A stretch of DNA of 61,863 nucleotides from Candidatus Campbellbacteria bacterium (GTDB lineage Bacteria > Patescibacteriota > Minisyncoccia > Phycocordibacterales > EsbW-18), in assembly GCA_045863475.1 (NCBI GenBank), contig BTUR01000002.1, forward strand, positions 79,553-141,415. The letters run 5' to 3'. The translations under genes were made by a program, and so were the position numbers. Under the pieces are notes generated by a model. It searched no databases. It saw only the letters and a list, made by a program, of their open reading frames with translations, and was not told where the DNA came from. Each line of letters begins with the position of its first letter. Position 1 is the first letter of the stretch. This document shows, in pieces, positions 6,706 through 60,359 of the stretch.

Positions 6706-6831
6706 ATGAGTCCCGTTAGAGATTACGGAGCCTCGAGGGATTCTTTGTTTCATCTATGATATACGTATTACTTATTCAAACTAAAAAAGGGAGCAGACGC
6801 TCATTGTCCGCACCCTCTCTAACGGGATGAG
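6706..6831 (+). repeat. Type A start-codon inverted-repeat element, copy A1, at the mreB start
   Basis: Perfect 12-bp IR: TCCCGTTAGAGA (6711-6722) and TCTCTAACGGGA (6816-6827). Direct repeats ATGAG at 6706-6710 and 6827-6831; the right copy is the mreB start. Confidence 0.8.
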
Positions 6832-7840
6832 CTTTTGGTCCAAAAAACTTGGCATCGATTTGGGGACGACAAATGTGCTCGTCTACCTGCCCGGGAAGGG
6901 AATTGTGCTCAATGAGCCGTCCGTCGTCGCAGTTTCTATTGATGACAACAAAATTCTCGCCGTCGGTATTGAGGCAAAAGAAATGATCGGCAAGACGCCG
7001 GAAAATATTGTTGCGTACCGTCCGATGAAAGACGGTGTCATTGCGGATTACCGCGTTACCGAGGCGATGCTCAAATATTTCATCAACAAAGCACTCGGAC
7101 GATGGAACATTTGGAAACCGGACGTGCTCATCTCCGTTCCCGCTGGCGTCACCTCAACGGAGCGACGTGCGGTCGTCGAGGCAGCCATTCGCGCAGGTGC
7201 GAAACAAGCGTTCATCATCAAAGAGCCCATTTTGGCTGCCATCGGCGCAGGCATTCCCATTCAAGACCCTGAGGGGCGCATGATTGTAGACATCGGCGGC
7301 GGCACAACGGACGTGGCCGTCATCTCACTCGGTGGCATTGTTACGTGTACCTCAGTCAAAGTCGCCGGCAATAAAGTTGACCAGGCAATCATCGACTACG
7401 TAAAGAAAAACTATAACCTTTCAATCGGCGACCGAACGGCAGAACAAATAAAAATCAAAATCGGCTCGGCGGTTCCTGTTGAGCAGGATCTCGTCATGAA
7501 GGTGCGCGGCCGCGACGTCGTCACGGGTTTGCCGCGTGAAATGGATTTGCAAACCAATGAGATTGTAAAAGCTATCCGTCGCGAACTGCGCGAGATGGTG
7601 CGCGCCATCAAGGACGTCTTCCAAGAAACTCCACCGGAGCTCGCTGCCGACATTATTGAGAAAGGTATTACCATGACGGGCGGCACCTCGCAGTTGCGCA
7701 ATTTCTCCGAATTGGTGTTTCGCACAACCGGTGTGAAAGCTCAAGTCGCTGATGAAGCAATTCTGTGTGTCGCGAAGGGAACCGGTATTGCACTTTTGCA
7801 CCTGGACACGTACAAGAAATCCATCGTCGCAAAACGCTAG
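6827..7840 (+). CDS. mreB: Rod shape-determining actin homolog MreB
   Basis: IDLGTTN, DIGGGTTD and the other ASKHA motifs; MreB length. Confidence 0.95.
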   Translation: MSFWSKKLGIDLGTTNVLVYLPGKGIVLNEPSVVAVSIDDNKILAVGIEAKEMIGKTPENIVAYRPMKDGVIADYRVTEAMLKYFINKALGRWNIWKPDVLISVPAGVTSTERRAVVEAAIRAGAKQAFIIKEPILAAIGAGIPIQDPEGRMIVDIGGGTTDVAVISLGGIVTCTSVKVAGNKVDQAIIDYVKKNYNLSIGDRTAEQIKIKIGSAVPVEQDLVMKVRGRDVVTGLPREMDLQTNEIVKAIRRELREMVRAIKDVFQETPPELAADIIEKGITMTGGTSQLRNFSELVFRTTGVKAQVADEAILCVAKGTGIALLHLDTYKKSIVAKR

Positions 7841-7844
7841 CCCT

Positions 7845-8492
7845 ATGGACTTGTTTCGTCATCACGCATACCTCTCCGCAGGCGACATTCCTGCGGTAAC
7901 GGACGGTGTCCGCGCACTGCTGGAACGTGCCGGCATTGTATTTTTGGGAAATCCGGACGTGCTCGCGGTCACCGCACATTCGCTCGGCATTGATGAGGCA
8001 CGCGGTATTTTTGAACACACCCGTGTGAGTGTTCCTCCGGAGAGTCGCCGCATTGTGTTGGTGTCATGCGTTCAGGCGACGGTTGAAGCGCAAAACGCGC
8101 TCTTGAAGCTCGCCGAGGAACCCCCGCGGCGCACACATTTCTTTTTCATCGTACCGAACGAAGACGTGCTGCTGCCAACACTGCGTTCCCGTCTGCAAAA
8201 ACTCCCTGTTGAGATGAGCGGGGAGGGAAGTGACGTACCGGATGCAAAGTATTTTTTGAGCGCCTCGTTTCAGAAAAGAATGGAGTTGGTGTCTGACTGG
8301 ATAGAAGAAAAGCAGCACGACCGCGCACTCTCGCTTCTCAACGGTCTCGAAGAACACCTGTCAGACGACCCTGTACGGCACCGCGACGCCCTTCACGCAA
8401 TCGAAACAGCGCGCGGGTATCTTCTGCGACGCGGCTCATCACTGAAGCTTGTGCTTGAGTACCTCGCGCTTTCTGTTCCAAAAATTTTGTAG
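7845..8492 (+). CDS. holB: DNA polymerase III delta-prime-like subunit (short form)
   Basis: NALLKLAEEPP and TLRSR motifs. There is no N-terminal P-loop. The start was moved to MDLFRHH, just after the mreB stop. Confidence 0.65.
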   Translation: MDLFRHHAYLSAGDIPAVTDGVRALLERAGIVFLGNPDVLAVTAHSLGIDEARGIFEHTRVSVPPESRRIVLVSCVQATVEAQNALLKLAEEPPRRTHFFFIVPNEDVLLPTLRSRLQKLPVEMSGEGSDVPDAKYFLSASFQKRMELVSDWIEEKQHDRALSLLNGLEEHLSDDPVRHRDALHAIETARGYLLRRGSSLKLVLEYLALSVPKIL

Positions 8493-8546
8493 AAATGAGA
8501 AACGCCCCGCGGCTGTGAAAGCCCGCGGGGCGTGGTGATTCGAGGA

Positions 8547-8987
8547 TCATCGAGAACGGGTGATGGCATCCGCGACGACCTGCGACATGGTCGTATGTCG
8601 ACGACGTGCTTCTTCCTTGATCAGTGAGTGAATGTCTCGCTGAAGATGGAGTTTCACCTGCACGGTGTCGGGGCCCTTTCGCCGCCCACGATTTTCACCG
8701 ATTGCAATCATGACTGCTCTGTAGGCCTCCTTGATACGTCCCTGATCACCAGGGGCGAAAAGAAGTGCGGCCTGAATTCCAACCCTACCACTGGCTGTTC
8801 GGTAGAGGTACACAGGACCACAATTCGGGAAGAAGCGGCGAAGAGCCTTCGTTGCTTGTTTCTTCTTGCTCTGAAGCTCGGGGTCACCTTTGACTTCAAG
8901 AAAAACGATATCTCTCTTCTCCACTCCGCACCTCCATTTTTTGTGTTCTTCTGGTGAGAAGATACGTTTTGTTAGCACCTTTGTCAA
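8547..8987 (-). CDS. Hypothetical protein with a C-terminal ribbon-helix-helix-like segment
   Basis: The C-terminus VQVKLHLQRDIHSLIKEEARRRHTTMSQVVADAI looks CopG/RHH-like. The start codon (TTG or GTG) is uncertain. Confidence 0.4.
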   Translation of the reverse strand: MTKVLTKRIFSPEEHKKWRCGVEKRDIVFLEVKGDPELQSKKKQATKALRRFFPNCGPVYLYRTASGRVGIQAALLFAPGDQGRIKEAYRAVMIAIGENRGRRKGPDTVQVKLHLQRDIHSLIKEEARRRHTTMSQVVADAITRSR

Positions 8988-8990
8988 CTC

Positions 8991-8999
8991 TGGTATAGT
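8991..8999 (+). promoter_or_regulatory. Extended -10 promoter TGGTATAGT only 6 nt upstream of the nth ATG, predicting a leaderless transcript
   Basis: The TATAGT hexamer ends at 8999 and the ATG is at 9006. There is no SD. Confidence 0.45.
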
Positions 9000-9005
9000 G
9001 CTCCT

Positions 9006-9662
9006 ATGACCACCGCACAGAAAGAACGCGCCAAGAAAATTTCACGCACACTTAGAAAGCTTTTTCCGGAAGCACGGATCGCGCTTCGCCACAAAAATCC
9101 GTGGGAGCTTTTGGTGGCAGTCATACTCTCAGCGCAGTGCACGGATAAAAAAGTAAACGAGGTTACCAAAACACTTTTCAAAAAGTACCGAAAACTTGAT
9201 GACTATGTGCACGCCGACCCGAAAGAATTTGCACAAGATATCCGCCAAACAGGATTCTTTAACGCAAAAACAAAAAATATTCTTGCAACGGCGCGCATGG
9301 TAAAAGAGCAGTTCGGCGGGAGGGTCCCAAAAACAATGGATGAACTTCTGACACTGCGAGGTGTTGCACGCAAAACGGCAAACGTGGTGCTTTCAAATGC
9401 GTTCGGAGTCAATGAGGGCATTGCAGTTGACACGCACGTCATCCGTTTTTCCAATAAGTTTGGTCTCTCATCACACCGTGATCCGAAAAAAATCGAACAG
9501 GACCTGATGAAATTGTTTCCCAAAGGGGAGTGGAACACCATCACCTACGGCTTTATTGAATACGGCAGGCAGGTGTGTCCGGCACGCAAACACGACTGCA
9601 TAAACCATCCGCTCACAAAACTGTATCCGAAAGCGGCGTCTATTTGGCCGAAGGCAAAATAG
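9006..9662 (+). CDS. nth: Endonuclease III (HhH-GPD DNA glycosylase/lyase)
   Basis: LRGVARKTANVVL plus VDTHVIR motifs. The C-terminal Cys cluster appears incomplete. Confidence 0.9.
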   Translation: MTTAQKERAKKISRTLRKLFPEARIALRHKNPWELLVAVILSAQCTDKKVNEVTKTLFKKYRKLDDYVHADPKEFAQDIRQTGFFNAKTKNILATARMVKEQFGGRVPKTMDELLTLRGVARKTANVVLSNAFGVNEGIAVDTHVIRFSNKFGLSSHRDPKKIEQDLMKLFPKGEWNTITYGFIEYGRQVCPARKHDCINHPLTKLYPKAASIWPKAK

Positions 9663-9669
9663 AAAGTGC

Positions 9670-9736
9670 TATACCCCGTGAGATACAGAGCCTCTTAGCT
9701 ACGTGTAGGGTGAAATTAGTTATCTCACGGGGTATA
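9670..9736. repeat. Type B inverted-repeat element, copy B1
   Basis: TATACCCCGTGAGATA (9670-9685) pairs with TATCTCACGGGGTATA (9721-9736): a 16-bp perfect IR with a 35-nt spacer, starting 8 nt after the nth stop. Confidence 0.8.
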
Positions 9737-9750
9737 CTGAATGACGTTAG

Positions 9751-9759: not shown

Positions 9760-9770
9760 TACGTCTCCTT

Positions 9771-9884
9771 ATGAATCCCGTTAGAATTTGATGTTTGTTA
9801 GCGTATAATCGTGACAATCAGTAAAGACCAGTGACTTGTGTAGTAGTAAATAGTAATTACACCTTTAATTTCTAACGGGATGAA
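9771..9884 (+). repeat. Type A start-codon inverted-repeat element, copy A2, at the VKOR-like gene start
   Basis: IR TCCCGTTAGAA (9776-9786) and TTCTAACGGGA (9870-9880). ATGAA at 9771-9775 and 9880-9884. The left ATG opens a 6-codon ORF, MNPVRI. Confidence 0.8.
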
Positions 9885-12135: not shown

Positions 12136-12141
12136 TTTCTT

Positions 12142-28019: not shown

Positions 28020-29891
28020 ATGGGAAAAATACTTGGCATTGATCTTGGAACAACAAACTCCGCAATGGCATACGTCCAGGGCGGGGAACCGACCATTATT
28101 GAAAACGCGGAGGGAAACCGCACCACGCCGTCCGTCGTTGCCGTTTCAAAAACAGGCGACCGGCTCGTGGGTCTTATTGCACGCCGCCAGGCGGTCACCA
28201 ACCCGAGTAACACCATTTACGGCATCAAGCGCCTCATGGGACACCGCTTTGAAGAAGACGCCGTCAAAAAAGAGAAGGGTGCCGTGCCGTTTGAAATCGT
28301 GTCTGAGAGCGACGGCGGTGCAGCGGTCAAGATGAATGATAAGGCGTACCGCCCCGAGGAAGTCTCCGCAATGATTTTGGGCAAACTAAAAGCGGACGCG
28401 GAAGCAAAACTCGGCGAGAAAATTACGGAGGCGGTCATCACCGTTCCCGCATACTTCAACGACTCACAGCGCAAGGCAACGAAAGACGCCGGCAAAATCG
28501 CAGGTCTTGATGTGAAGCGCATCATCAATGAGCCAACCGCTGCCGCACTCGCGTACGGTTTCAATAAAAAGAAGAACGAACAGATTGTCGTCTTTGACTT
28601 CGGCGGCGGTACCTTCGACATCTCCGTCTTGGAAGTGGGCGACGACGTTGTTGAGGTGAAGGCAACCGGCGGCGACAGCCACCTCGGCGGCCGTGACATC
28701 GACCAGAAAATCGTCCGCTACATCCTTGATGAGTTCAAGAAAGAGTCGGGTCTTGATATCTCAAAAGATCCGCTCGCCCTCCAGCGTCTCGACGAAGCGG
28801 CCGAAAAAGCGAAGCACGAACTCTCAACAACAACTGATACTGAAGTAAACATTCCGTTTATCGCATCCGATTCTTCGGGTCCGCGCCACCTGCTCGTGAA
28901 AATTACGCGCGCGAAACTTGAGGAAATCACCAAAGAGTTCATTGACCGCGCAATGGAAATCACCAAAAACGTCATTGCCGACTCACCGTTTAAAAAAGAG
29001 GACATTGATGAGGTTATCCTCGTCGGCGGACAAACCCGCATGCCCGCAATTCAGGCGGCTGTGAAAGAATTCTTCGGCAAAGAACCGAACCGCACCATCA
29101 ACCCGGATGAAGTCGTCGCCCTCGGTGCCGCCATTCAGGCAGGTATTCTCCAGGGTGATGTTCGCGACGTGCTTTTGCTTGACGTAACGCCACTCTCACT
29201 TGGTCTTGAAACACTCGGTGGTGTTGCAACGAAGCTCATTGATAAAAACACAACCATTCCGGCGACAAAATCACAGGTATTCTCAACGGCATCTGACAAC
29301 CAGACCTCCGTGGAAATCCACGTCGTGCAGGGAGAGCGTCCGATGGCAGCGGACAACCGCTCTCTGGGCCGCTTTATCCTCGATGGCATTCCGCCGTCCC
29401 CGCGCGGCACCCCGCAAGTTGAAGTGTCATTTGACCTCGATGCAAACGGAATCCTCACCGTCAAAGCAAAAGACAAAACCTCCGGCAAAGAGCAGTCCAT
29501 CAAGATTGAAGGTTCCTCAGCGCTTTCAGAGGACGACATCAACAAGATGAAGCAAGACGCCGAGAAGCACGCCGACGAAGACCGCAAGAAAAAAGAACTC
29601 GCCGACGCGCGCAATCTCGCAGACCAAACAACACTCATTGCAGAGAAAGCACTCCAGGACGCGGGTGACAAAGTTCCGAAAGACCTCGCCGACGCCGTGC
29701 GTGCAAAGGTAGACGACGTAAAGAAAGCAAAAGACGGCACGGACGTAGCCGCTATCAACACCGCCGTGCAAACACTTTCAACTGAGATGCAGAAAATCGG
29801 ACAGCACATGCAGCAAAGCGCTCAGCCGAAAGCAGAAGAAGGTCCGAAAGACGCGGACTTCAAAGAAGAAGGCGACGACAAAAAGGAGTAA
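28020..29891 (+). CDS. dnaK: Chaperone DnaK (Hsp70)
   Basis: [17 protein letters not shown] and VGGQTRMP motifs. Confidence 0.97.
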
Positions 29892-30178
29892 TGAATCCCG
29901 TTAGAGTTCACTCAGGTATGTTTTATGTCTATATACTCCGAAGTCAGAAAACAGATCGAATGTATGTAGGTAGCACAGGAGATTTACGGAAACGTTTAAT
30001 CCAACATAACCAAGGAAAAAGTTACTGGACAAAACGCTACACACCGTGGAAGGTAATATATTACGAAGCGGGTCTAAATGAACAAGATGCACGCGCACGA
30101 GAAAAATACCTTAAATCGGGACCCGGCAAGCGTTTTATCAAGAATAGGATCAAACGTTTCCTAACTCTAACGGGATGA
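29891..30178 (+). CDS. Small GIY-YIG (URI domain, YhbQ/COG2827-like) nuclease
   Basis: FYVYILRS...YVGST.DL.KRL..HN motifs. The core may start at the ATG at 29918. The upstream in-frame ATG (29891) overlaps the dnaK stop (TAATG). The stop TGA overlaps the next ATG (ATGA). Confidence 0.8.
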   Translation: MNPVRVHSGMFYVYILRSQKTDRMYVGSTGDLRKRLIQHNQGKSYWTKRYTPWKVIYYEAGLNEQDARAREKYLKSGPGKRFIKNRIKRFLTLTG

Positions 30179-30179
30179 A
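29891..30179 (+). mobile_element. Type A start-codon inverted-repeat element, copy A3, carrying a GIY-YIG nuclease ORF (candidate autonomous copy)
   Basis: Perfect 13-bp IR: TCCCGTTAGAGTT (29896-29908) and AACTCTAACGGGA (30163-30175). ATGAA at 29891-29895 and 30175-30179. The interior is visibly AT-richer than the flanking dnaK and dnaJ. Confidence 0.6.
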
Positions 30180-30309
30180 AAAACACAGTAAGGTGGGAAA
30201 TAGAGCGGGGAAGCCGGCATACCGGACACCATCCTCGTTCATCGTTCGCAAACGCATCGCGGTACAGTCAAAACAGCAGCTCCGTACCAGAAATACAAAA
30301 CATGTCTAA
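30175..30309 (+). CDS. Candidate 44-aa basic small protein between dnaK and dnaJ
   Basis: [44 protein letters not shown]. Its stop overlaps the dnaJ start (ATGTCTAA). Its ATG is the right-hand duplicated ATGAA of element A3. Confidence 0.35.
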
Positions 30310-31363
30310 GAATTATTACGACATTCTCGGCATCAGCCGCGATGCTTCAAAAGACGACATCAAAAAAGCGTTCCGTACGCTCGCGCACAAATATCACCCC
30401 GACAAAAAAGGCGGTGATGAAGCGAAGTTCAAGGAAATAAACGAAGCGTACACCGTGCTCTCCGATGATTCAAAGCGCGCGGAGTACGACACGTACGGCC
30501 GCACGTTCGACGGAGGCCAGGGTGGCTTCTCCGGATTTGAAGGATTTGACTTCTCGCAGTTCACCAACGCGGGCGGATTCCAATTTGATCTCGGCGATAT
30601 CTTCGGCGACTTTTTCGGCGGCGGCGGACGAGGAAAGGTGCGCCGCGGACGCGACATCTCCATTGACGTCGAGTTGTCATTCAAAGAGTCAATCTTCGGC
30701 ACAGAGCGCAAAGTGCTCATCACCAAAAACTCGGTGTGTGCCACGTGCAAAGGCAGCGGCGCCAAACCGGGAAGCGGTATGGAGAAGTGCACGACCTGCG
30801 ATGGTAAAGGAAAACTAAAGGAAACGAAAACATCACTGTTCGGCACATTCGCAACTGTCACAACCTGCTCACACTGCTTTGGTCGCGGCGAAACACCAAA
30901 AGAACGCTGCGGCAAGTGCCGCGGCGAGGGTATCACGCGTGCGCAACAGGAAGTCCGCGTCGTTATTCCGTCAGGCATTGAAAACGGCGAGATGATTCGC
31001 ATGACGGGCGAGGGCGAAGCCATTCAAAACGGCACCGCAGGCGATTTGTATGTGAAAGTCCACGTGGAACCGCACCCGGTCTTCCGCAAAGAGGGGAATG
31101 ACCTCATCATGAGTCTGCCGATTAAAATCTCCGACGCGCTCACGGGTACCACCGTGCATCTCGAAACACTCGACGGTCGCATTGAACTTTCAATCCCGCA
31201 AGGGACAAAACCCAACGAAGTGTTGCGCCTGAAAGAAAAGGGTGTCCCGTATGGAGAAGGAAAACGCGGCGCACTCTTGGTTCGTGTGACCTTTGCAATG
31301 CCCGAGCGTCTCTCAAAACGCGCTCAGGAACTCATTGAAGAGCTTAAAAAAGAGGGGTTGTAA
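30302..31363 (+). CDS. dnaJ: Chaperone DnaJ
   Basis: J domain (HPDK), a G/F region and four CxxCxGxG repeats. Confidence 0.95.
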
Positions 31364-31393
31364 TCCGCACCAAACCCCTGTAGGATGCCTGCG

Positions 31394-31594
31394 GGGAGGA
31401 TTGGGAGGTAGGGAGGCCCGAACCGGACGCATACGTGGCAAAAGCCGATACGGCCGTCCAGAAAAAAGACCTTGCGCGAGGCATGTACATGTAGACGGCT
31501 GAGTACCTGGTAGAGAGCAGCGACGCCACCGTAGGCGCCGCCCGCCGCGCGACGAATACAAACTACGCTACTCCGCGAAACCCAATCCTCCCCA
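31394..31594 (+). ncRNA. Unclassified structured RNA candidate closed by a 13-bp helix
   Basis: GGGGAGGATTGGG (31394-31406) is perfectly complementary to CCCAATCCTCCCC (31582-31594). The interior has further imperfect pairings giving a rod-like fold. Strand is uncertain. Confidence 0.4.
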
Positions 31595-31676
31595 CACGGG
31601 CCCGACTAAACACCGGGCTCTTTTCTATTGTCAGCGAGCCGCTTTTCATTTCGTGTGGTATCATTTTTTGTACTGG

Positions 31677-31798
31677 TCCCGTTAGAGACTTCTCAGTTTT
31701 GAGCTCGAGTGGGAAGCAGGATACTGTTACGATGTTGAGTAATCTGTTAAAAATCTAATTGGTACGGAAATGTGTTCCATTTCCTATCTCTAACGGGA
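31677..31798 (+). repeat. Type A inverted-repeat element, copy A4 (not at a start codon, no flanking ATG duplication)
   Basis: Perfect 12-bp IR: TCCCGTTAGAGA (31677-31688) and TCTCTAACGGGA (31787-31798). The outer flanks TGGT / ATACCA resemble type B arms. Confidence 0.75.
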
Positions 31799-31821
31799 TA
31801 CCAAAAGAACAAAATGACCGA

Positions 31822-31892
31822 ATGGATCACGTTAGAGGCTAAGACGCATTACCACATACCATGACCAAACCACAAGACTCTAACGTGATGGA
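31822..31892 (+). repeat. Type A-like mini element, copy A8, at the glyQS start
   Basis: Perfect 11-bp IR: TCACGTTAGAG (31827-31837) and CTCTAACGTGA (31878-31888). ATGGA at 31822-31826 and 31888-31892. Confidence 0.65.
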
Positions 31893-33174
31893 GAAGATTA
31901 TCTCGCTGTGCAAACGGCGCGGTTTTATCTTCCAAGGCTCCGAAATTTACGGTGGACTCGCCGGCACGTGGGATTACGGCCCCTTAGGTTCCGAACTCAA
32001 ACACAACGTCAAAACGCTCTGGTGGAAGCGCTTCGTAACCGACCGTGACGACATGTACGGTATGCACGCGGCCATTCTCATGAATCCGAAGGTGTGGGAA
32101 GCATCCGGGCACGTCTCGGGGTTTTCCGACCCGCTTATTGCGTGTGAGAAGTGCAAGCGACGTTTCCGCGCCGACCAACTCGATGATACGACAAAATGCC
32201 CTGAGTGCGGTGGAAAGCTCGGCGAACCGCGAGCATTCAACATGATGTTTAAGACCGCAATCGGAGCAACTGAGGATGAAAACTCCATCACGTACCTGCG
32301 CCCCGAAACCGCCGGTGGTATGTTTGTGAACTACAAAAACATCATCGACACCTTCCACCCGAAACTGCCGTTCGGCCTGGCCCAAATCGGAAAAGCATTC
32401 CGCAACGAAATCGCTCCGCGCGACTTCCTCTTCCGCTCTCGAGAATTTGAACAAATGGAAGTGGAGTACTTCGTCGCACCCGAAGACTGGGAACGCGCGT
32501 TTGAAGAATGGCGCACCATCATGCTCTCGTGGGTAAAAGAAATCGGTCTTAAAGACGACCATGTGCACGAACACGAAATCGCACCAGGCGACCTCGCATT
32601 TTATTCCAAGCGCACGATTGATTTTGAATTTGATTACCCGTTCGGCCAGAAAGAGTTGTACGGACTTGCGTACCGCACCGACTACGACCTCGGTAAGCAC
32701 AGTGAGTACAGTGGTGTTGCGCTGGATTATTTTGACGAAGAACAAAAGAAGCGCTTCACGCCGCACGTCATTGAGCCCTCACTTGGTGTTGATCGCACCG
32801 TGCTCGCAATTCTCTCTGACGCATACGACGAAGAGGAGGTGGAAGGGGAGACGCGCGTTGTGCTCCGCCTGAAACCCGTTATCGCACCCTTCCACGTCGC
32901 CGTTTTGCCGCTGATGAAAAAAGACGGCTTGGGAGACAAAGCACGAGAGATTACAAAGACACTCAAGCAGAGTTTCAGATGCATGTCCGATGAGTCCGGC
33001 TCCATCGGCAAGCGCTACCGCAGACAAGATGAGATCGGCACGCCGCTGTGCATCACCGTTGACTACGACACACTTGAAAACGACACTGTCACCGTCCGCG
33101 ACCGCGACTCCATGAAGCAGGAGCGCGTCGCCATTGCCGAGCTCCCCGCATACATCGGCAAACTCCTCGCGTAA
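31888..33174 (+). CDS. glyQS: Glycine--tRNA ligase (alpha2 dimeric type)
   Basis: KRRGFIFQGSEIYGG, FRNEI.PR and class II motifs. The preferred start, MEKII at 31888, sits at the element boundary. The ATG at 31861 lies inside element A8. Confidence 0.9.
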   Translation: MEKIISLCKRRGFIFQGSEIYGGLAGTWDYGPLGSELKHNVKTLWWKRFVTDRDDMYGMHAAILMNPKVWEASGHVSGFSDPLIACEKCKRRFRADQLDDTTKCPECGGKLGEPRAFNMMFKTAIGATEDENSITYLRPETAGGMFVNYKNIIDTFHPKLPFGLAQIGKAFRNEIAPRDFLFRSREFEQMEVEYFVAPEDWERAFEEWRTIMLSWVKEIGLKDDHVHEHEIAPGDLAFYSKRTIDFEFDYPFGQKELYGLAYRTDYDLGKHSEYSGVALDYFDEEQKKRFTPHVIEPSLGVDRTVLAILSDAYDEEEVEGETRVVLRLKPVIAPFHVAVLPLMKKDGLGDKAREITKTLKQSFRCMSDESGSIGKRYRRQDEIGTPLCITVDYDTLENDTVTVRDRDSMKQERVAIAELPAYIGKLLA

Positions 33175-46416: not shown

Positions 46417-46548
46417 ATGAATCCCATTAGAAAGCCGCGGTCGCAACAAATGGGAATCAGCAATTTTAACGAGAATTATCATTACATGGCGATAACCACG
46501 CAGTTCAACGGTTGGTCAGAGACCGCGACCTGCTTCTAACGGGATGAA
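46417..46548 (+). repeat. Type A start-codon inverted-repeat element, copy A5, at the aspS start
   Basis: IR TCCCATTAGAA (46422-46432) and TTCTAACGGGA (46534-46544), 10 of 11 paired. ATGAA at 46417-46421 and 46544-46548. A 40-codon ORF runs from the left ATG to the TAA inside the right IR. Confidence 0.75.
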
Positions 46549-47955: not shown

Positions 47956-48714
47956 ATGAGCGAGCCGTTTGTCATCAAAACACCTGTCTTTGAGGGGCCG
48001 CTTGAGCTTCTGCTTACGCTTATTGAAAAGCACAAGCTCCACATCAGCGACATCGCGCTTTCGACCGTTGCCGACGAATACATGGAACACGTGCGGAAGC
48101 TTTCCGAGTTTCCGACGCGCGACGTCGCACAATTTGTTTTGGTGGCATCAACACTGGTCCTCATCAAGTCGCGCTCGCTCTTGCCGGAATTTAACCTGAC
48201 GACTGAAGAAGAGACCAATATTCAAGACCTCCAGGACCGTCTGCGCCTCTACCAGCGCGCACGGGAATTGAGCAAACACGTCGCCGAGCGCTTCGGAAAG
48301 CGCATGATGTTCCCGCGGCAGGAGACCGCGCTTTCATTTGCGCCGGTGTTTGCGCCGCATGAGTCCATCACAACCTCGCGTATTTTTGAATCACTCCGCG
48401 GCGTCATTGCGCGCTTGCCGAAGGTAGAGAAGATGCAGAAAGCCGTCGTAGAGAAAATTATGTCTCTGGAGGAAATGATGGGGAATCTTACCGGCCGCAT
48501 CCAGCGGGCGATTTCCATGCGCTTCTCGGAATTTGCAAAAACCCACGCGCAGGACAAAACGACACAGCGCGAGGTAAAAGCACACACTATCGTTTCATTT
48601 CTTGCTATGCTGGAGCTCGTCAAACAGGGAATGCTTGCTGCGCGACAGCAGGCGATGTTCTCCGACATTGAAATGGAGAGTACAACCCTGGGGACCCCGC
48701 GCTACACCCCATGA
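47956..48714 (+). CDS. scpA: Segregation and condensation protein A
   Basis: FEGPLELLLTLIEKHKL.I.DI motif. The last codons and the TGA stop lie inside the left arm of element B2. Confidence 0.9.
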   Translation: MSEPFVIKTPVFEGPLELLLTLIEKHKLHISDIALSTVADEYMEHVRKLSEFPTRDVAQFVLVASTLVLIKSRSLLPEFNLTTEEETNIQDLQDRLRLYQRARELSKHVAERFGKRMMFPRQETALSFAPVFAPHESITTSRIFESLRGVIARLPKVEKMQKAVVEKIMSLEEMMGNLTGRIQRAISMRFSEFAKTHAQDKTTQREVKAHTIVSFLAMLELVKQGMLAARQQAMFSDIEMESTTLGTPRYTP

Positions 48715-48808
48715 GATATATGCACCTACACCTTGATACCCTAAAAATCTCTCCGTGGTCCTATAAAGTCCACAGTATTTATTGCTCGCTATATCTCACG
48801 GGGTACAC
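48703..48808. repeat. Type B inverted-repeat element, copy B2, bridging scpA and scpB
   Basis: Left arm TACACCCCATGAGATAT and right arm ATATCTCACGGGGTACAC. The inner 14 positions pair with one mismatch. A 34-codon ORF (48711-48815) starts in an ATGA overlap with the scpA stop and ends 3 nt before the scpB ATG. Confidence 0.7.
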
Positions 48809-50320: not shown

Positions 50321-50388
50321 GTACACCCCATGAGATACACGTGAGATACCCTGTACCGACTTTTTATTCCTTATCTCACGGGGTACAC
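50321..50388. repeat. Type B inverted-repeat element, copy B3, between dac and mraY
   Basis: GTACACCCCATGAGATA (50321-50337) and TATCTCACGGGGTACAC (50372-50388), with an internal partial arm copy ACGTGAGATACC. A GGTAC/GTACC hairpin plus TTTTTATT lies inside. Confidence 0.75.
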
Positions 50389-51475: not shown

Positions 51476-51604
51476 ATGAATCCCGTTAGAGATTCTTCAG
51501 TTATGAACTTCGACTTTAGTGCCAAAAAAGATTTTTATTCGGATGCAAGCAAAGGTGCAATAACCACGGAAACGCAAAGCGTTTCCTACCTCTAACAGGA
51601 TGAA
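51476..51604 (+). repeat. Type A start-codon inverted-repeat element, copy A6, at the ftsW start
   Basis: IR TCCCGTTAGAG (51481-51491) and CTCTAACAGGA (51590-51600), 10 of 11 paired. ATGAA at 51476-51480 and 51600-51604. A 39-codon ORF runs from the left ATG to the TAA in the right IR. Confidence 0.75.
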
Positions 51605-52721: not shown

Positions 52722-52793
52722 GGTATACCCCGTGAGATATGGGGTCTTTTTTATGTTGTAGAACCTTTAGTTTTGGTATCTCACGGGGTATAC
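52722..52793. repeat. Type B inverted-repeat element, copy B4, between ftsW and murG
   Basis: GTATACCCCGTGAGATA (52723-52739) pairs with TATCTCACGGGGTATAC (52777-52793): a 17-bp perfect IR. Inside is a terminator-like hairpin, ACCCC..GGGGT plus TCTTTTTTAT. Confidence 0.8.
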
Positions 52794-57228: not shown

Positions 57229-57621
57229 TTATTGACAGTTTTTTGCTTTCGTGAGACCTGCTTGTTGTGCCACGTCTTCACTCGCATACCATATTTTATT
57301 TTCTTCTTTAATCTGGCTGGCACCGGCACACCAGGGGTAGTGGTAGCGGGAACCGCTCTTGGAGGCGACGACCCTTCCCCCTGCCCCCGACAGGGGGTCG
57401 CTGTTTTCAGACCCTTTGAGAGCCCCTAAAACGCCCTCCGGCGAGACTTTTATGAAGACGTCGGCGTCGGTGCCTGGGGCGTCTTGGGACGCGGATACAG
57501 GCGATCTCGGGTAGACGGATACGGGGCATCTGACTTCCCTATTTTGACCGATTTTTACGGCCCCGTAGGAGAGGACTGCCACACATACCGTGCAGAGGAC
57601 GACTACCCCATTCCGGGCCAC
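57229..57621 (-). CDS. Membrane-anchored protein with a C-terminal Cys-containing (Ada-like metal-binding) motif
   Basis: The C-terminus SRYHYPWCAGASQIKEENKIWYASEDVAQQAGLTKAKNC. The start is uncertain: a GTG at 57621 gives an N-terminal TM, and longer starts would overlap the rpmA promoter. Confidence 0.45.
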   Translation of the reverse strand: MARNGVVVLCTVCVAVLSYGAVKIGQNREVRCPVSVYPRSPVSASQDAPGTDADVFIKVSPEGVLGALKGSENSDPLSGAGGRVVASKSGSRYHYPWCAGASQIKEENKIWYASEDVAQQAGLTKAKNCQ

Positions 57622-57637
57622 CGTGAGGATTCGGGTC

Positions 57638-57666
57638 TTGTTATTTAGAGCAAAAACCTGTATACT
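57638..57666 (+). promoter_or_regulatory. Promoter TTGTTA-N17-TATACT upstream of rpmA
   Basis: Hexamers at 57638-57643 and 57661-57666. Confidence 0.5.
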
Positions 57667-57696
57667 CCCTTTTGCTTTTTCAAATAAGAACGACAT

Positions 57697-57972
57697 ATGG
57701 CACATAGGAAAGCCGGAGGAACAGCTAAAAACCTGCGCGACTCAAACCCAAAATTCTTGGGTGTTAAAATCGCAGACGGACAGAAAGCTAAGCCGGGGGC
57801 AATCATCGTCCGCCAGCGCGGCACACGCATCGAGGCTGGAAAGAACGTCCGTATGGGTAAAGACCACACGCTCTTCTCAACGGCAAACGGCACGGTGAAA
57901 TTCCGCATGAAGCGCGTTGTGCGTTTCAACGGCACACCCGCCCGTCAGAAGATTGTAGACGTGCTCGCATAA
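57697..57972 (+). CDS. rpmA: 50S ribosomal protein L27
   Basis: [24 protein letters not shown] start. Confidence 0.95.
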
Positions 57973-57981
57973 AGAAAACTT

Positions 57982-58011
57982 AAAAGGCCCGCTCGAGAGA
58001 GCGGGCCTTTT
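57982..58011. terminator. Bidirectional intrinsic terminator between rpmA and rplI
   Basis: GGCCCGCTC pairs with GAGCGGGCC, with a GAGA loop, flanked by AAAA and TTTT. Confidence 0.85.
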
Positions 58012-58021
58012 CGTATTCGTA

Positions 58022-58468
58022 TTATTTCTGAGCCTCAACGCGGACGGTAATCGTTCCCATGATGTTGCCGATACCAACTTTCATCTGTGTATCCCCCACT
58101 TCTTTGATGGGGTGGTCCAGGTGCATGCAGTCCGGCGGAATCTCCACGCCGAGTTGGTCGTACGCGCAACTCGCAATGCGCTCTTTGTGTAATGCGCCGA
58201 AGAGGTGTCCTTGTTCATTTACTTTCTCACTAATCGTCACCGTCTTTCCGTCAATTTTTTTGATACAGTGTGCAACTTGCTCCTCATGCATGACTTTCTT
58301 CTCCGAGAGTTCTGCTTTTCGCTGTGCAACCATCGCGCGCGTCGCCGGCGTTGCTGCCTGTGCGAGCCCTTGCGGGATAAGGCAGTGAAGCGCGTAGCCG
58401 TCAGCGACGGTTACAATGTCAAAACGCTTTCCAACTTTTGCGACGTCTTTGAGTAATACGACTTCCAT
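58022..58468 (-). CDS. rplI: 50S ribosomal protein L9
   Basis: MEVVLLKDVAKVGKRFDIVTVADGYA start. Confidence 0.93.
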   Translation of the reverse strand: MEVVLLKDVAKVGKRFDIVTVADGYALHCLIPQGLAQAATPATRAMVAQRKAELSEKKVMHEEQVAHCIKKIDGKTVTISEKVNEQGHLFGALHKERIASCAYDQLGVEIPPDCMHLDHPIKEVGDTQMKVGIGNIMGTITVRVEAQK

Positions 58469-58695
58469 AAGGCATTCATAATACTACAGGGTGCCACGTT
58501 TGAACATATCAACCCCGCCCGGGTTTTGCACAGGGGTGTATGTTCAAAAATACGAGACATCAGCACCCTTTTTTGGGCTTTATGCCCGAATCAGAAATTC
58601 CTGCGGGGTTGACCTTTCTCCGGGGAGCGCAAGAATAGAGGCAGGACAGATCTTTGGCGCACAACAACGACACAATAGAAAGGAGGTGATGCGGG

Positions 58696-58971
58696 GTGGA
58701 CACGAAGGGCGTTGAGGAACGAGCACAGCTTTTCCTCATCCAGAAGGAAGATGGGCGACGAATGATTTCCGGACTTGATGCGCTGGGCAGCGAACAACTG
58801 TTGTTTGCTGTTCTGGTCATCAAATACTCCGACGGTACCGGTGTCGTACGTTTCCCCAGAAGTGCTGAAAAACCGTTTTCGGTTGATCTCAAAGGGATGA
58901 CTGCCGAGGAGTTCGCACGGAAACTCCTTGCCGACGAGGAGACGGAGTATGGAATACCACGCATCGTGTAA
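58696..58971 (+). CDS. Hypothetical protein
   Basis: 91 aa with a GTG start 7 nt after a strong SD (GGAGGTGA). No known motif. Confidence 0.45.
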   Translation: MDTKGVEERAQLFLIQKEDGRRMISGLDALGSEQLLFAVLVIKYSDGTGVVRFPRSAEKPFSVDLKGMTAEEFARKLLADEETEYGIPRIV

Positions 58972-59044
58972 CACAGTGCGCCACGTAGCATGAGCCGACC
59001 TCGCCCAACATTGGGGAGACCACCGGCTCATTTTCGTTTCTTCC

Positions 59045-60253
59045 CTATTCAGAGAGAAGTATATCGACCGCCGCATCCAGCTGCGGGTCAACATCATTTT
59101 GAAAATCTTCAACACTGCGGAGAACTTCAACATCCGGCGTTAACCCGCCGTCTGAGATGGAGAGACCGTTTGGCGTGTACCATTTTCCAATAGTGATTTT
59201 GACCGACGTGTTGTTCGCAACCGAAATGAGTTCCTGCACGGAGCCTTTGCCGTACGTCGTCTCCCCTACCAGTACTGCGCGTCCGTGTTCCTGCAATGCA
59301 CCCGCCACAATTTCGGACGCCGATGCGGAGCCGCGATCAACGAGCACGACAACTTCTGTATCTTCCGGAACAAGTTTGTAGCCGAAACTGCGGTAGTCGC
59401 GGTTCTCCCTTCCCTGCTCAAATTTCTCGGACACGACGACTTCACCTTCCGGCAAGAAGTAGCTCGCGATTTCCACCGCAGAACCCAAAATGCCGCCGGG
59501 GTTGCCGCGCAAATCAAAAATGAGTTTGGTACTTCCTGAGGCGACGAACTCTTTGAGCGCGCGGTGCACTTTTTCAGATGACTGTCCGTCAAAGTTGTAC
59601 AACGAGAGTACGAAGATACCGTCGGGACGAAGCTCAGTATCGAGTGTCGGAATATCAATCCGCTCACGCGTAATCGTCATTTCCAAAAATTCATCTTCAC
59701 CCTCGCGCGAAATAGTGAGTGCAACTTTCGTGCCAACATCACCGCGAATGCGGTTCACCGCTTCGTCCACGGAAAGATCCAGCGTTGATTCTTCGTCAAT
59801 TTTGATGATCACATCGCCCGAACGGATACCTGCGCGCTCCGCCGGCGTACCCTTCAGTGGAGAAACGACGACAATCGCGCCTTCTTGCTGACCGATTTCC
59901 ATACCGACACCGCCGAAACTTCCCGCAATCATGTCATTGAAAAATTCAGTTTCTTCTGGCGGCAGGAAAACAGAATACGGGTCATCAAGCGACGCGACGA
60001 GTCCTGAAATTGCGCCCCATACTTTTTCCTGCGGGTCCACGTTATTCGGCTCGTAGTAGCGCTCATTGATGATGTTCCACACTTCCCAGAAGTCAGAAAA
60101 GTCAGCGGGTGTGGACGACGGCGTCTCGGTGTTAATGGCACCCGTCACCAACTCAACAGGGTCAACGGAGTCCTTTCCAATGAGAAAACCGGCGCCAAAC
60201 AGCACCACGCATAACAACAACAGCCCAAATCTTCGTGAAAATCCCCTATTCAT
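59045..60253 (-). CDS. ctpA: Carboxy-terminal processing (S41) peptidase with a PDZ domain
   Basis: PDZ (GIRSGDVIIKID), GNPGG and SASASE motifs. The start was moved to MNRGF at the right boundary of element A7. The 24 upstream codons of the track ORF lie inside the element. Confidence 0.88.
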   Translation of the reverse strand: MNRGFSRRFGLLLLCVVLFGAGFLIGKDSVDPVELVTGAINTETPSSTPADFSDFWEVWNIINERYYEPNNVDPQEKVWGAISGLVASLDDPYSVFLPPEETEFFNDMIAGSFGGVGMEIGQQEGAIVVVSPLKGTPAERAGIRSGDVIIKIDEESTLDLSVDEAVNRIRGDVGTKVALTISREGEDEFLEMTITRERIDIPTLDTELRPDGIFVLSLYNFDGQSSEKVHRALKEFVASGSTKLIFDLRGNPGGILGSAVEIASYFLPEGEVVVSEKFEQGRENRDYRSFGYKLVPEDTEVVVLVDRGSASASEIVAGALQEHGRAVLVGETTYGKGSVQELISVANNTSVKITIGKWYTPNGLSISDGGLTPDVEVLRSVEDFQNDVDPQLDAAVDILLSE

Positions 60254-60359
60254 CCCGTTAGAAATTAAACCCGATGTGTGTAATAAATTCACTCTAATAC
60301 AAAGATTGTGTCCCTTCCCCCACAAAACCCCGTTTAGACGACTTTCTAACGGGATTCAT
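60249..60359 (-). repeat. Type A start-codon inverted-repeat element, copy A7, at the S41 peptidase start (minus strand)
   Basis: Perfect 12-bp IR at 60253-60264 and 60343-60354; the minus strand reads TCCCGTTAGAAA...TTTCTAACGGGA. On the minus strand ATGAA occurs at 60359-60355 and 60253-60249. Confidence 0.8.

Follow-up and report, generated by a model that had tools for sequence, protein, structure and literature searches.

The inverted-repeat copies in the 61,863-nt window, the whole stretch of DNA analysed here, probably belong to a family of mobile elements that is widespread in Patescibacteria (candidate phyla radiation), is moved by its own GIY-YIG nuclease and is restricted to start codons. 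This kind of element appears to be previously undescribed: it is tiny (~280 bp), encodes only a small GIY-YIG nuclease and has shorter non-coding derivatives. We found no description of such an element in the full-text literature searched; an earlier sequence-only reading likewise knew of no element class targeting start codons.

Element copies and empty sites

Scanning the window for TCMCGTTAGA with at most one mismatch returned 18 matches on both strands (shuffled sequences, 5.7 ± 2.3; 18 or more in 0 of 100), 16 of which are accounted for by eight pairs of inverted repeats (IRs). Direct reading of the sequences placed all eight pairs exactly where the sequence-only reading had them. One copy is full-length and seven are short and non-coding:

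29896..30175, + strand: A3, full-length element, 280 bp, 13-bp terminal IRs TCCCGTTAGAGTT / AACTCTAACGGGA
29892-29895 and 30176-30179: A3 duplication, TGAA
6711..6827, + strand: A1, short non-coding copy, 117 bp, mreB start codon, 12-bp IR
6707-6710 and 6828-6831: A1 duplication, TGAG
9776..9880, + strand: A2, short, 105 bp, start codon of a VKOR-like gene, duplication TGAA
31677..31798, + strand: A4, short, 122 bp, class S2, former first ATG of glyQS
31827..31888, + strand: A8, shortest copy, 62 bp, second in-frame glyQS ATG (now the start), duplication TGGA
46422..46544, + strand: A5, short, 123 bp, class S1, aspS start codon, one IR mismatch
51481..51600, + strand: A6, short, 120 bp, class S2, ftsW start codon, one IR mismatch, duplication TGAA
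60253..60354, − strand: A7, short, 102 bp, start codon of an S41 peptidase gene, 13-bp IR
60249-60252 and 60355-60358: A7 duplication, TGAA (TTCA on the + strand)

The 5-mer preceding the left IR equals that across the right junction in seven of the eight copies, being ATGAG for A1, ATGAA for A2, A3, A5, A6 and A7 (minus strand for A7) and ATGGA for A8. This flank identity had been read as a duplication of up to 5 bp; the identity holds, but only four of the bases (TGAA, TGAG or TGGA) are truly duplicated, and the A that stands as the fifth right-hand base is the final base of the element. A4, already noted as lacking matching 5-mers, has decayed flanks (cTGG on the left, TACC on the right). 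The corresponding place in relatives reads catATGGCAAAAGAACAAAACGACAGGATGGAG and holds an upstream in-frame glyQS ATG (ATGGCAAAAG), which suggests that A4 too was inserted at or beside a start codon and that its flanks have decayed since.

In close relatives (MreB 93-95% identical), the element is precisely missing and ATGAG or ATGAA stands there once, as the sequence-only reading had anticipated; the copies are therefore insertions. Such empty sites were found in syntenic relatives at mreB (ggacATGAGtttctgg for A1 in L157 and L158, MreB 93% identical), the VKOR gene (ctccttATGAAaaacgcg for A2 in L157), the small ORF after dnaK (gaaTAATGAAgcgcc for A3 in L159), glyQS (a single caggATGGAgaag at the A8 place) and ftsW (caacATGAAaaaatcag for A6 in L160). 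At the A5 locus, no element is present upstream of aspS in L160, where the start context differs (ATGCAC). Fixed, non-mobile regulatory leaders of housekeeping genes, a reading suggested by the location at 5' ends of essential genes and by stable folds, are refuted by these empty sites in relatives whose encoded proteins are 90-95% identical. Their probability is close to nil, as unrelated host genes carry insertions in different organisms and one copy encodes a nuclease.

The reading frames at both ends agree with those described earlier. Every left end encodes M-(N/S/D)-(P/H)-(V/I)-R; the short ORF that starts there is either the N-terminal part of a GIY-YIG nuclease gene or its leader. At the right end, TAA in CTCTAAC closes one frame, TGA in GGGATGA closes another, and the third (..SNGM) enters the host protein, which accounts for the N-terminal extensions of ORFs 31861..33174 and 59045..60325. 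The short copies had been taken for decayed relatives of something larger. The larger relative exists (A3), and its ends and internal helix recur in several of the short copies, but most interiors have no recognisable derivation from the nuclease gene and showed no similarity to it in profile comparison.

The window also contains four copies of a sister family, B:

9674..9732: B1, 59 bp, IR CCCCGTGAGATA / TATCTCACGGGG, duplication TATA
48707..48803: B2, 97 bp, duplication TACA, 15 nt upstream of the scpB ATG
50326..50383: B3, 58 bp, duplication TACA, upstream of an mraY-like gene
52728..52788: B4, 61 bp, duplication TATA inside TATACT, downstream of ftsW

The B1 duplication is part of a TATACT box that precedes the VKOR-like gene, and L157 has the empty site gtgcTATACtgaaag. 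L160 lacks B2, its scpA and scpB being 5 nt apart, and at the B3 site it has a single gcgcTACACTagcactATG, a TACACT box 6 nt ahead of the start codon ATG.

The nuclease of the full-length element

29891..30178, + strand: GIY-YIG nuclease ORF, 95 codons (translation; Pfam PF01541, E=1e-16)
30175..30306, + strand: A3 host gene, a conserved 43-codon basic ORF between dnaK and dnaJ (from the sequence)

The nuclease ORF begins at the left, original host start codon, which overlaps the dnaK stop (TAATG), and runs through both IRs, which encode codons 2-6 and the last five codons. Its TGA overlaps the rebuilt ATG at 30175 (ATGA). A3 had been assigned to a plain dnaK-dnaJ spacer; it sits instead on the start codon of the 43-codon ORF, which overlaps the dnaK stop (TAATGAA) and whose own stop overlaps the dnaJ ATG. 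L159 has the same small ORF directly after dnaK (MKRHSKVGNRKG...). An nhmmer profile built from 105 metagenome elements aligns to A3 end to end (E=3.8e-54).

Judged by sequence and predicted fold, the A3 ORF, overlooked in the sequence-only reading, is assigned to the GIY-YIG nucleases of Slx1/UPF0213 type. It has 2907 homologues; among the best 120, 64 begin MNPVRD and 85 finish FLSLTG. Across 35 homologues, Y14, Y25, G27, R33, R35, H39 and E59 are invariant. The AlphaFold model (pLDDT 84.6) has Slx1 and UPF0213 BH0048 as its top nine PDB matches, and these fit better than I-TevI and UvrC. The gene is under purifying selection, both between L075 and L138, which carry it at the same host gene in diverged organisms (pN 0.088 vs pS 0.61), and family-wide (pN 0.26 vs pS 0.77).

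GIY-YIG is a classic homing-endonuclease fold, the protein weakly matches NCBIfam TIGR01453 (group I intron endonuclease), and identical nuclease proteins were found in only one genomic context each across many samples. These features would suit classical free-standing homing endonuclease genes, which spread between alleles of one locus via double-strand-break repair, the repeats being incidental. We consider this highly improbable, since the insertions occupy many unrelated genes with 4-5 bp in common, too little homology for repair-templated copying, and have clean 4-bp duplications. Moreover, the protein has no DNA-binding domain beyond its ~85-residue core, and non-coding derivatives lie at yet other loci.

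Insertion at start codons

We scanned metagenomes for two IR 10-mers 255-285 bp apart with unconstrained flanks and obtained 112 non-duplicate full-length elements. An ATG stood at the right junction in 97 of the 112, and most of these ATGs open ORFs of hundreds of codons, confirming the concentration at start codons in a sample chosen regardless of flanks. Right-junction 5-mers were mainly ATGAA (80), followed by ATGGA (6), ATGAG (5) and ATGAT (3). Flank identity persisted in these copies as well: the left and right 5-mers agreed in 63 of the 112, and 68 had an exact 4-bp duplication (usually TGAA), with duplications of 3 or 5 bp in 10 more. Among elements without any exact duplication (28/112), some had a one-base mismatch and others unrelated left flanks (e.g. 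ATTTA, ATCTG). The left flank is GTGAA and the right (A)TGAA in L066 and L083, indicating that the element's terminal A makes the new ATG; L054, read on the other strand, has TTGGAA and ATGGAA.

These junctions suggest that the element enters just ahead of TGAA (more rarely TGAG or TGGA), directly after the first base, N, of the start codon, probably by a staggered cut that yields the 4-bp duplication. The terminal A of the element would always turn the right-hand copy into ATG and so leave the host gene with a start codon, also where it had begun with GTG or TTG. The full-length element, 277-280 bp and filled by one ORF for an 86-95-residue nuclease, seems to have no promoter or ribosome-binding site of its own, and the host start signal would drive its translation. 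The left host start codon either is fused in frame to the nuclease ORF or opens a 6-19-codon leader finishing beside the nuclease ATG. Among 70 elements bearing NTG to the left and ATG to the right, a single ORF extends between the host start and the overlapping TGA in 38, and 18 combine a short leader with a separate ORF for the nuclease. Ribosomes terminating at the TGA of ATGA could then reinitiate on the host gene. The full-length elements sampled are ~71% identical to one another; with one context per identical protein, this gives no direct sign of recent full-length copying.

The restriction to starts could come from targeting or from selection. It is quite possible, though on balance we do not favour it, that selection is responsible: TGAA, TGAG or TGGA would suffice for entry, intragenic copies would be lethal, and copies elsewhere would be lost by breaking compact promoter or terminator regions or by leaving the nuclease unexpressed. 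This would be compatible with the rest of the mobile-element explanation. Non-ATG 4-bp duplications do occur (TTTT in L147, TTAA in L149, TAAA in L081), the window is 91-92% coding, and among control genes of these AT-rich loci ~42% already start with ATGAA, ATGAG or ATGGA. Furthermore, the target's TGA doubles as the nuclease stop codon, and 97% of full-length copies share the direction of the host gene, as expected if expression matters. Against selection, the 1655 TGAA, TGAG or TGGA sites outside elements in the window comprise 1525 intragenic, 108 intergenic and 22 predicted start sites; both of the latter kinds would be tolerated, yet 7 of 7 duplication-flanked copies are at starts. Short palindromic elements between genes are tolerated in other bacteria. 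Non-coding short copies, which need no expression, also lie at starts (21/26 in other loci, all in the window), and those of class S2 have a uniform orientation relative to the host gene.

Covarying helices and mobility

29988..30002, + strand: helix 2, 5' arm GGAAACGTTTAATCC (L-R-K-R codons), pairing with 30147-30161
30147..30161, + strand: helix 2, 3' arm GGATCAAACGTTTCC (K-R-F-L codons), just inside the right IR

The IR and this second long-range helix covary strongly. Terminal IRs of full-length elements are perfect over 13-14 bp (TCCCGTTAGAGAY ... RTCTCTAACGGGA), and positions 11-13 are variable yet complementary in 303 of 306 cells. For helix 2, RNAalifold and pair counts over 96 elements gave 96.4% of cells paired, with changes on both sides in 7 of 10 pairs. 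Double-change cells in both helices numbered 165, compared with 43.8 ± 5.5 after shuffling and at most 32 with partners slid.

In short copies from unrelated samples, helix 2 persists as a hairpin that covaries and always lies on the host-ATG side. It adjoins the right IR in A4 (GGAAATG..CATTTCC) and a hairpin does so in A6 (GGAAACGC..GCGTTTCC). The A8 IR has a matched change on both arms (TCACGTTAGAG / CTCTAACGTGA), and that of A5 is lengthened by a GC-rich stem (GCCGCGGTCGC / GCGACCGCGAC); the class of A5, S1, also occurs in L052, L065, L086 and L068. We propose that the short copies are non-autonomous derivatives keeping the IRs and, in class S2, helix 2, and that IRs and helix 2 may form a cis-acting structure for the nuclease, presumably hairpin or branched DNA.

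Alternatively, the helices might act in mRNA and be kept for host-gene translation, the terminal stem bringing an upstream 5' end or leader beside the rebuilt AUG or making an RNase III site. We regard this as possible but rather doubtful; it is not exclusive of the mobile-element explanation. GIY-YIG ORFs are also found in stem-flanked rRNA insertions of these bacteria (L020; PMC11270868). In the minimum-energy fold of every short copy (z-scores -2.6 to -4.1), the element is closed by the IR stem, at whose base both AUGAx copies lie, and the IRs are intact although the interiors are unrelated. In A1 and A2, a long distance separates the stop of the leader ORF from the downstream host AUG, which excludes stop-start coupling at these two copies. 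G-U pairs are usually tolerated in RNA helices, whereas the variable IR positions are near-strictly Watson-Crick (1 G-U in 306 cells). Helix 2 mismatches (19 G-U vs 13 A-C) show no clear sense-strand G-U excess and do not discriminate action in DNA from action in RNA. The stem also buries the A of the host AUG, and the elements matched no Rfam family.

Two points count against mobility driven by the nuclease: no GIY-YIG enzyme is known to catalyse transposition, and the cuts of characterised members have 3' overhangs of 1-2 nt instead of a 4-nt stagger. The presence of a single full-length copy in the window also counts against the mobile-element explanation. The nuclease could instead be a passenger; the copies would then be ordinary miniature inverted-repeat elements that depend for movement on an unlinked transposase, for instance a DDE enzyme encoded elsewhere in the genome. 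Terminal IRs combined with a fixed short duplication typify DDE transposition, GIY-YIG enzymes are hydrolases not known to catalyse strand transfer, and the window has seven short copies to one full-length copy. We nevertheless find a passenger role unlikely, since the nuclease ORF fills the element, both repeats included, at constant length and with no other ORF in at least 100 independent metagenome loci, and is under purifying selection. Different GIY-YIG clades go with different repeat sequences in different phyla, and relatives with different IRs likewise have 4-bp duplications (TATG in L009, TTCG in L016, CCCA in L007, Flavobacteriales). Helix 2, finally, is made of the nuclease's own conserved codons.

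Copies in the window and empty sites in relatives

We searched the window for TCMCGTTAGA with at most one mismatch and obtained 18 matches, compared with 5.7 ± 2.3 in shuffled sequence. The eight inverted pairs listed in the sequence-only reading account for 16 of the 18 and delimit copies A1 to A8 of family A, located at mreB (A1), a VKOR-like gene (A2), an ORF after dnaK (A3), glyQS (A4 and A8), aspS (A5), ftsW (A6) and an S41 peptidase gene (A7). Read directly, seven copies carry a matching 5-mer (ATGAG, ATGAA or ATGGA) ahead of the left repeat and spanning the right junction, as had been claimed. All-frame translation bore out that the left end encodes M-(N/S/D)-(P/H)-(V/I)-R, and that the right end closes two frames (TAA, TGA) and lets the third (..SNGM) continue into the host protein. 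This third-frame fusion yields ORFs 31861..33174 and 59045..60325 of the mechanical ORF list and thus explains the N-terminal extensions, as proposed. That reading had overlooked that A3 codes for a GIY-YIG nuclease.

We compared the copies with syntenic contigs of relatives whose proteins are 93-95% (MreB) and 87-90% (DnaK) identical to those of the window. The search for orthologous empty sites suggested earlier found them precisely at five start-codon positions, which correspond to six family-A copies; three sites of a sister family, B, were also empty.

Empty sites in relatives and the corresponding sites in the window
mreB: relative empty, ggacATGAGtttctgg; window, ggacATGAG[A1]TGAGctttt
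VKOR-like gene: relative empty, ctccttATGAAaaacgcg; window, ctccttATGAA[A2]TGAAaaacgc
small ORF after dnaK: relative empty, gaaTAATGAAgcgccactc; window filled by A3
ftsW: relative empty, caacATGAAaaaatcag; window filled by A6
glyQS: relatives empty, catATGGCAAAAGAACAAAACGACAGGATGGAGAAG; window filled by A4 and A8

In the relatives, glyQS has two in-frame ATGs; A8 lies exactly on the second and A4 at the first, where its flanks have since decayed. Together with the other sites, this context indicates that all eight copies entered at or beside start codons. The window insertions were absent wherever relatives were compared, including aspS, where the relative lacks the element in a different start context. 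Exact look-ups of the window MreB and AspS returned the same strain only. With the elements removed, the window contains 1655 TGAA, TGAG or TGGA sites, of which 1525 fall within genes, 108 between genes and 22 at predicted starts, and all seven duplication-flanked copies lie at starts. We regard the mobile nature of the family and its start-codon location as established. An invertible promoter driving phase variation was rejected: the hosts are housekeeping genes, and empty sites with duplications mark insertion, not inversion.

The dnaJ-glyQS interval also contains a GC-rich intergenic stretch of 313 nt (31364-31676), in which a long-range inverted repeat of 16 nt lies at 31390-31405 / 31581-31596. 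Of the relatives, L159 has a counterpart comparable in length and composition, and L160 lacks it. The window stretch had no Rfam match even at E<=1 and may be an uncatalogued structured RNA.

Full-length elements in metagenomes and the duplicated TGAA

Metagenome contigs were scanned for TCCCGTTAGA-N(255-285)-TCTAACGGGA with unconstrained flanks, which gave at least 120 loci. After orientation by ORF and deduplication, 112 elements with readable flanks remained among the matches listed. At the right junction (the element's last base plus 4 nt), these 112 listed elements read ATGAA in 80 cases, ATGGA in 6, ATGAG in 5 and ATGAT in 3. Altogether 97 of the 112 have an ATG there, mostly starting an ORF of hundreds of codons, so the predicted enrichment at start codons extends to metagenomic repeat pairs. 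The left 5-mer is ATGAA in 53, ATGAG in 8, ATGGA in 4 and GTGAA in 3 of the same 112, and the flanking identity seen in the window recurs, with identical left and right 5-mers in 63. Of the 26 short copies in the surveyed loci (47-244 bp), 21 likewise have ATG at the junction. The same repeat pair gave 0 matches in the viral contigs scanned.

With element bounds set as TCCC...GGGA, an exact duplication of 4 bp flanks 68 of the 112 listed elements and one of 3 or 5 bp flanks 10; 28 have none, several of these being off by one base. Two loci, L066 and L083, read GTGAA on the left and ATGAA on the right, L052 reads GTGAA and ATGAT, and L054, on the other strand, has TTGGAA versus ATGGAA. These sites show that the duplication is the 4-bp TGAA and that the new ATG is made by the element's terminal A. 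The target duplication of 4-5 bp proposed earlier therefore stands as a duplication, established here, with its length corrected to 4 bp and the terminal A assigned to the element. Non-ATG duplications (TTTT, TTAA, TAAA) are rare. As every insertion recreates its target, tandem arrays are expected, and tandem or nested arrays on one start codon were found at L052:1000-1397, L058:118-482, L113:2097-2401 and around position 3001 of L013; in one arrangement, a short copy is directly followed by a full-length copy, with TGAA common to both. Inverted repeats (13-14 bp without mismatch in 96 of 102 elements), a target duplication of fixed length and exact boundaries between filled and empty sites are features of a transposon or insertion sequence. 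The host sites are varied, being those of the eight window copies and, in metagenomes, dozens of unrelated genes.

To describe selection and copying, we compared elements between organisms. L075 and L138, which share a host gene in diverged organisms, gave a pN of 0.088 versus a pS of 0.61, and the family-wide values for the nuclease were 0.26 versus 0.77. With pN far below pS, the nuclease has been kept functional. Full-length elements of different organisms are only ~71% identical, BLAST among 115 of them found no near-identical pair at different sites, and the interiors of the window copies differ among themselves. The identical nuclease proteins P0013, P0111 and P0020 occur on many contigs, each representing one locus in many samples; this single context per protein provides no evidence of recent copying from these three. 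Given ~71% identity and one context per protein, the full-length copies look like long-lived, low-copy residents, much as RAYT genes do.

Two further patterns were seen in the flanks. In two full-length elements, L131:3515-3850 and L136:640-945, the palindrome continues into the flanks (24 nt in L131; ATGAAAA / TTTTCAT in L136), a pattern that suggests either an inversion between two copies or an error of assembly. Left flanks ATTTA, GTTTA or ATCTG recur without a duplication in L037, L073, L076, L075/L138 and L056/L126, where the right junction is nonetheless an ordinary ATGAA start codon; at some of these loci the upstream gene enters the element and stops at a TAG within the left repeat.

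The nuclease, the conserved helices and translation

Features of the full-length copy and its surroundings
29896-30175, full-length copy A3
29891-30178, GIY-YIG nuclease ORF of 95 codons (Pfam PF01541, E=1e-16)
30175-30306, conserved, strongly basic 43-codon ORF between dnaK and dnaJ

GIY-YIG is the sole Pfam domain of the A3 ORF, matching PF01541 with 61.4 bits (cut-off 22.6) over residues 10-76. Of the two copies of the start codon, the left one serves as the nuclease ATG and overlaps the dnaK stop (TAATG). The left repeat forms codons 2-6 (NPVRV) and the right repeat the final codons (LTLTG), and the TGA overlaps the right-junction ATG (ATGA). That ATG starts the 43-codon ORF, whose stop overlaps the dnaJ ATG. 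An exact-sequence look-up of the window's nuclease gave no match, and a homology search gave 2907 homologues, nearly all from Patescibacteria. Among the best 120 of these 2907, 75 have exactly 95 residues, 64 begin with MNPVRD and 85 end with FLSLTG, showing that both repeats are conserved family-wide. The 43-codon ORF is probably an unannotated small protein; in L159 it overlaps the dnaK stop, and it is missing in L160, where dnaJ begins 2 nt after dnaK.

We used AlphaFold to model the 95-residue A3 protein. The model (pLDDT 84.6) has disordered repeat-encoded residues 1-6 and a single helix at the C-terminal end. Foldseek ranks 1-9 were Slx1 nuclease domains and UPF0213 BH0048 (probability 1.00, query TM-score 0.50-0.63), with I-TevI at rank 21 and UvrC at rank 25, and sequence searches gave the same order. 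The nuclease core is thus nearer to the Slx1/UPF0213 (YhbQ-like) branch than to I-TevI or UvrC. Residues Y14, Y25, G27, R33, R35, H39 and E59 do not vary among 35 homologues; by analogy with I-TevI and Slx1, these may have catalytic roles. The C-terminal RING/PHD-type zinc finger that marks Slx1 orthologues is absent from the A3 protein. No transposase of the DDE, DEDD, HUH, serine, tyrosine or Cas1 class was found, GIY-YIG being the only protein of A3. A role of this nuclease in mobility is what we infer, with good motivation.

Two helices are conserved in the element. Repeat positions 11-13, which the search pattern did not set, vary and remain complementary in 303 of 306 cells. RNAalifold on 96 elements identified a second, long-range helix (helix 2) between GGAAACGCTTT (L-R-K-R codons) and AAAGCGTTTCC (K-R-F-L codons), with 96.4% of cells paired and both-side changes in 7 of 10 pairs; for example, the third base of a Lys codon (A/G) tracks that of an Arg codon (T/C), 50 to 40 with 6 exceptions. 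Double-change cells in both helices number 165, compared with 43.8 ± 5.5 after shuffling and at most 32 in slid controls. The asymmetry of G-U and A-C pairs, as a discriminator of RNA from DNA, was not significant (19 vs 13).

Classes of short copies recur between unrelated samples. In class S2 (A4, A6 and copies in L056, L149, L096, L151, L080 and L113), helix 2 persists as a covarying local hairpin adjoining the right repeat, always on the host-ATG side. In class S1 (A5 and copies in L052, L065, L086 and L068) the repeat is lengthened by a covarying GC-rich stem. The conserved cis structures of these non-coding copies are as would be expected of parts required for mobilisation, and may act in DNA or RNA. 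An nhmmer profile of full-length elements matched short copies at the termini only, and simple internal deletion does not account for most of them. Rfam gave nothing at gathering score across the window and nothing at E<=1 in 29800-31950; translational bypassing or intron excision is unsupported, given a 62-bp copy and no ribozyme match.

The ORF architecture, which we consider established, was counted in the 70 listed elements whose left flank reads NTG and whose right junction reads ATG. In 38 of them a single ORF runs from the host's original start through the nuclease to a TGA overlapping the rebuilt ATG. Another 18 have a leader ORF of 6-19 codons ending a few nt from the nuclease's own ATG, the nuclease stop again being ATGA, and 14 have other or broken arrangements. 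The dominant element lengths, 277 and 280 bp, are in-frame lengths. No Shine-Dalgarno-like sequence lies at a usable distance at the element's right end, and such sequences occur at 5% of insertion sites compared with 10% of control genes. The element would be read from the host initiation signal, with ribosomes passed on at ATGA, a hand-over that we consider well motivated. In A1 and A2 the leader ORF ends early, so the host gene needs another route; possibilities are a terminal stem bringing the two AUGs together, or scanning by 70S ribosomes.

We also asked which signal marks the insertion sites. Upstream stops overlap or abut the start codon, or the upstream ORF enters the element, at 25 of 85 sites (~30%); such operon-internal sites indicate that the common feature is the start codon, not a promoter. 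Leaderless-type promoters occur at 34% of insertion sites compared with 21-25% of control genes. In view of this weak enrichment and the 25 operon-internal sites, we dropped the idea that an open promoter complex generally guides targeting. The cause of the start-codon restriction is likewise a well-motivated inference. Among gene starts of the window and of loci L034-L153, Shine-Dalgarno-like sequences are rare (~10% of long-ORF starts) and TATAAT-like boxes 4-10 nt upstream of the ATG are common, a pattern suggestive of many leaderless genes in this group.

Sister family, known systems and wider relatives

Family B is palindromic, with the inverted repeat CCCCGTGAGATA / TATCTCACGGGG and four window copies of 58-97 bp.

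Family B copies in the window
9674-9732, family B copy
48707-48803, family B copy
50326-50383, family B copy
52728-52788, family B copy

Its 4-bp duplications, TATA or TACA, lie within TATACT or TACACT boxes just upstream of genes, and in relatives the sites of three of the four copies are empty or absent. A nuclease-encoding parent of family B was not found in the DNA examined.

Tentatively, these elements could represent a new class of autonomous DNA transposon, at ~280 bp the smallest known. Its sole protein, an Slx1-like GIY-YIG nuclease, would act on conserved hairpins or branched DNA formed by the element itself, and integration would be aimed at gene-start signals: the start codon N|TGAA, where the last base completes the ATG, or, for the sister family, a -10-like TAYACT box. 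The 4-bp duplication would regenerate the host signal, and the old copy would drive the parasite. To our knowledge, the GIY-YIG fold has so far been tied to mobility of DNA elements through homing only, and the class would add a transposon type with such a nuclease as its enzyme. It would also show the extent to which mobile DNA can shrink, to a single ORF that contains both repeats and the internal helix, with no regulatory DNA besides, in a parasite that occupies the start codon of essential genes (mreB, ftsW, aspS, glyQS), their most sensitive triplet, without killing its host. The insertions explain wrongly extended or misplaced start codons in candidate-phyla-radiation genomes, as well as many genes annotated there as 'GIY-YIG nuclease family protein'. 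They offer natural markers for strain-level comparison and a system in which to study stop-start (ATGA) reinitiation and leaderless translation in bacteria where Shine-Dalgarno sequences are seldom used; the nuclease, which possibly recognises N|TGAA or hairpin junctions, could serve as a tool.

We compared the element with known systems. Rickettsia palindromic elements, Neisseria Correia elements and ERIC are hairpin-forming repeats of 60-150 bp co-transcribed with host genes, those of Rickettsia even in frame within coding sequences; we know of none that is tied to start codons, rebuilds an ATG with its terminal base or has a GIY-YIG parent. Nor do we know of mobility in UPF0213 proteins. 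Slx1 and UPF0213/YhbQ-type proteins (PDB 7cq2, 6sei, 4xlg, 1zg2) are the best matches in sequence and fold. Slx1 cuts branched and stem-loop DNA, which by analogy would fit a hairpin-forming element. However, Slx1 is a repair enzyme with a C-terminal zinc finger and a partner, Slx4, whereas the element's protein is a bare core plus a repeat-encoded basic helix.

Free-standing GIY-YIG homing endonuclease genes, such as the phage T4 seg genes (review PMC2988022), are likewise small selfish genes between host genes, often closely packed. Homing genes are specific for a single long cognate site and spread through homologous repair; they are not known to have inverted repeats, target duplications or non-coding derivatives. 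In contrast, the element occupies many unrelated loci that have only N|TGAA in common, with 13-bp repeats and a 4-bp duplication, and its nuclease belongs to the Slx1/UPF0213 branch, not that of I-TevI.

REP/REPIN elements with RAYT transposases (PMC3116915, PMC3337134) resemble the element in having a low-copy nuclease gene flanked by palindromes that are also present as many short, hairpin-forming, non-autonomous copies, in long vertical persistence and in an enzyme under purifying selection. RAYTs are HUH tyrosine enzymes, however, and REPINs are extragenic and not known to have a target duplication or a start-codon link, whereas here a GIY-YIG enzyme is encoded by an ORF that takes in the repeats, and the start codon is the point of insertion. 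IS200/IS605 elements are also very small, with cis-essential hairpins, a specific 4-5-nt target neighbour and strict orientation bias, but have an HUH transposase, subterminal hairpins, no target duplication, at least 600 bp and their own expression signals. Both groups differ from A3, in which no HUH (Y1) transposase domain was found, and from the family with its 4-bp duplication. With no known transposase class, a duplication, many unrelated targets and no Rfam match, the element lacks the defining features of each system; in part it mixes traits of miniature inverted-repeat elements or insertion sequences, REPIN/RAYT and free-standing homing genes. Full-text searches of papers available without subscription gave no prior description of such an element.

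The closest paper concerns non-intron insertions with GIY-YIG ORFs in rRNA genes of candidate-phyla-radiation bacteria (PMC11270868), which share the bacterial group, the protein family and a location outside introns. That paper considered the GIY-YIG ORFs not to be part of spread by homing; its elements sit in rRNA helices, and it describes no inverted repeats, target duplications or start-codon insertion. Locus L020, where a 12-bp inverted repeat flanks a GIY-YIG ORF within 16S rDNA, is an example of this type.

Repeats and sites of wider nuclease relatives
CCC(N)GTAGT(A/G)GAA..., ~20 bp: Nomurabacteria and others; TATG (L009, L011), ATGA (L014), TATAA or TAAAA (L006, L008)
CCACGTTAGAAATT: Flavobacteriales (L007); duplication CCCA
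CCCCGTTAGAAAT: Bacteroidota including cultured strains; no clear duplication
CCCAGCCCTTTT / AAAAGGGCTGGG, 12 bp: L020:2990-3300; within the 16S rRNA gene
several loci: nuclease relatives adjoining tRNA genes

More distant GIY-YIG relatives, at L020, L021, L023, L026 and L029, lie in a 16S rRNA gene or directly after tRNA genes. In Bacteroidota, L010 (Brumimicrobium mesophilum JCM 14063), L015 (Cyclobacterium sp.), L005 and L007 carry related GIY-YIG genes flanked by inverted repeats of the CCCCGTTAGAAAT or CCACGTTAGAAATT type.
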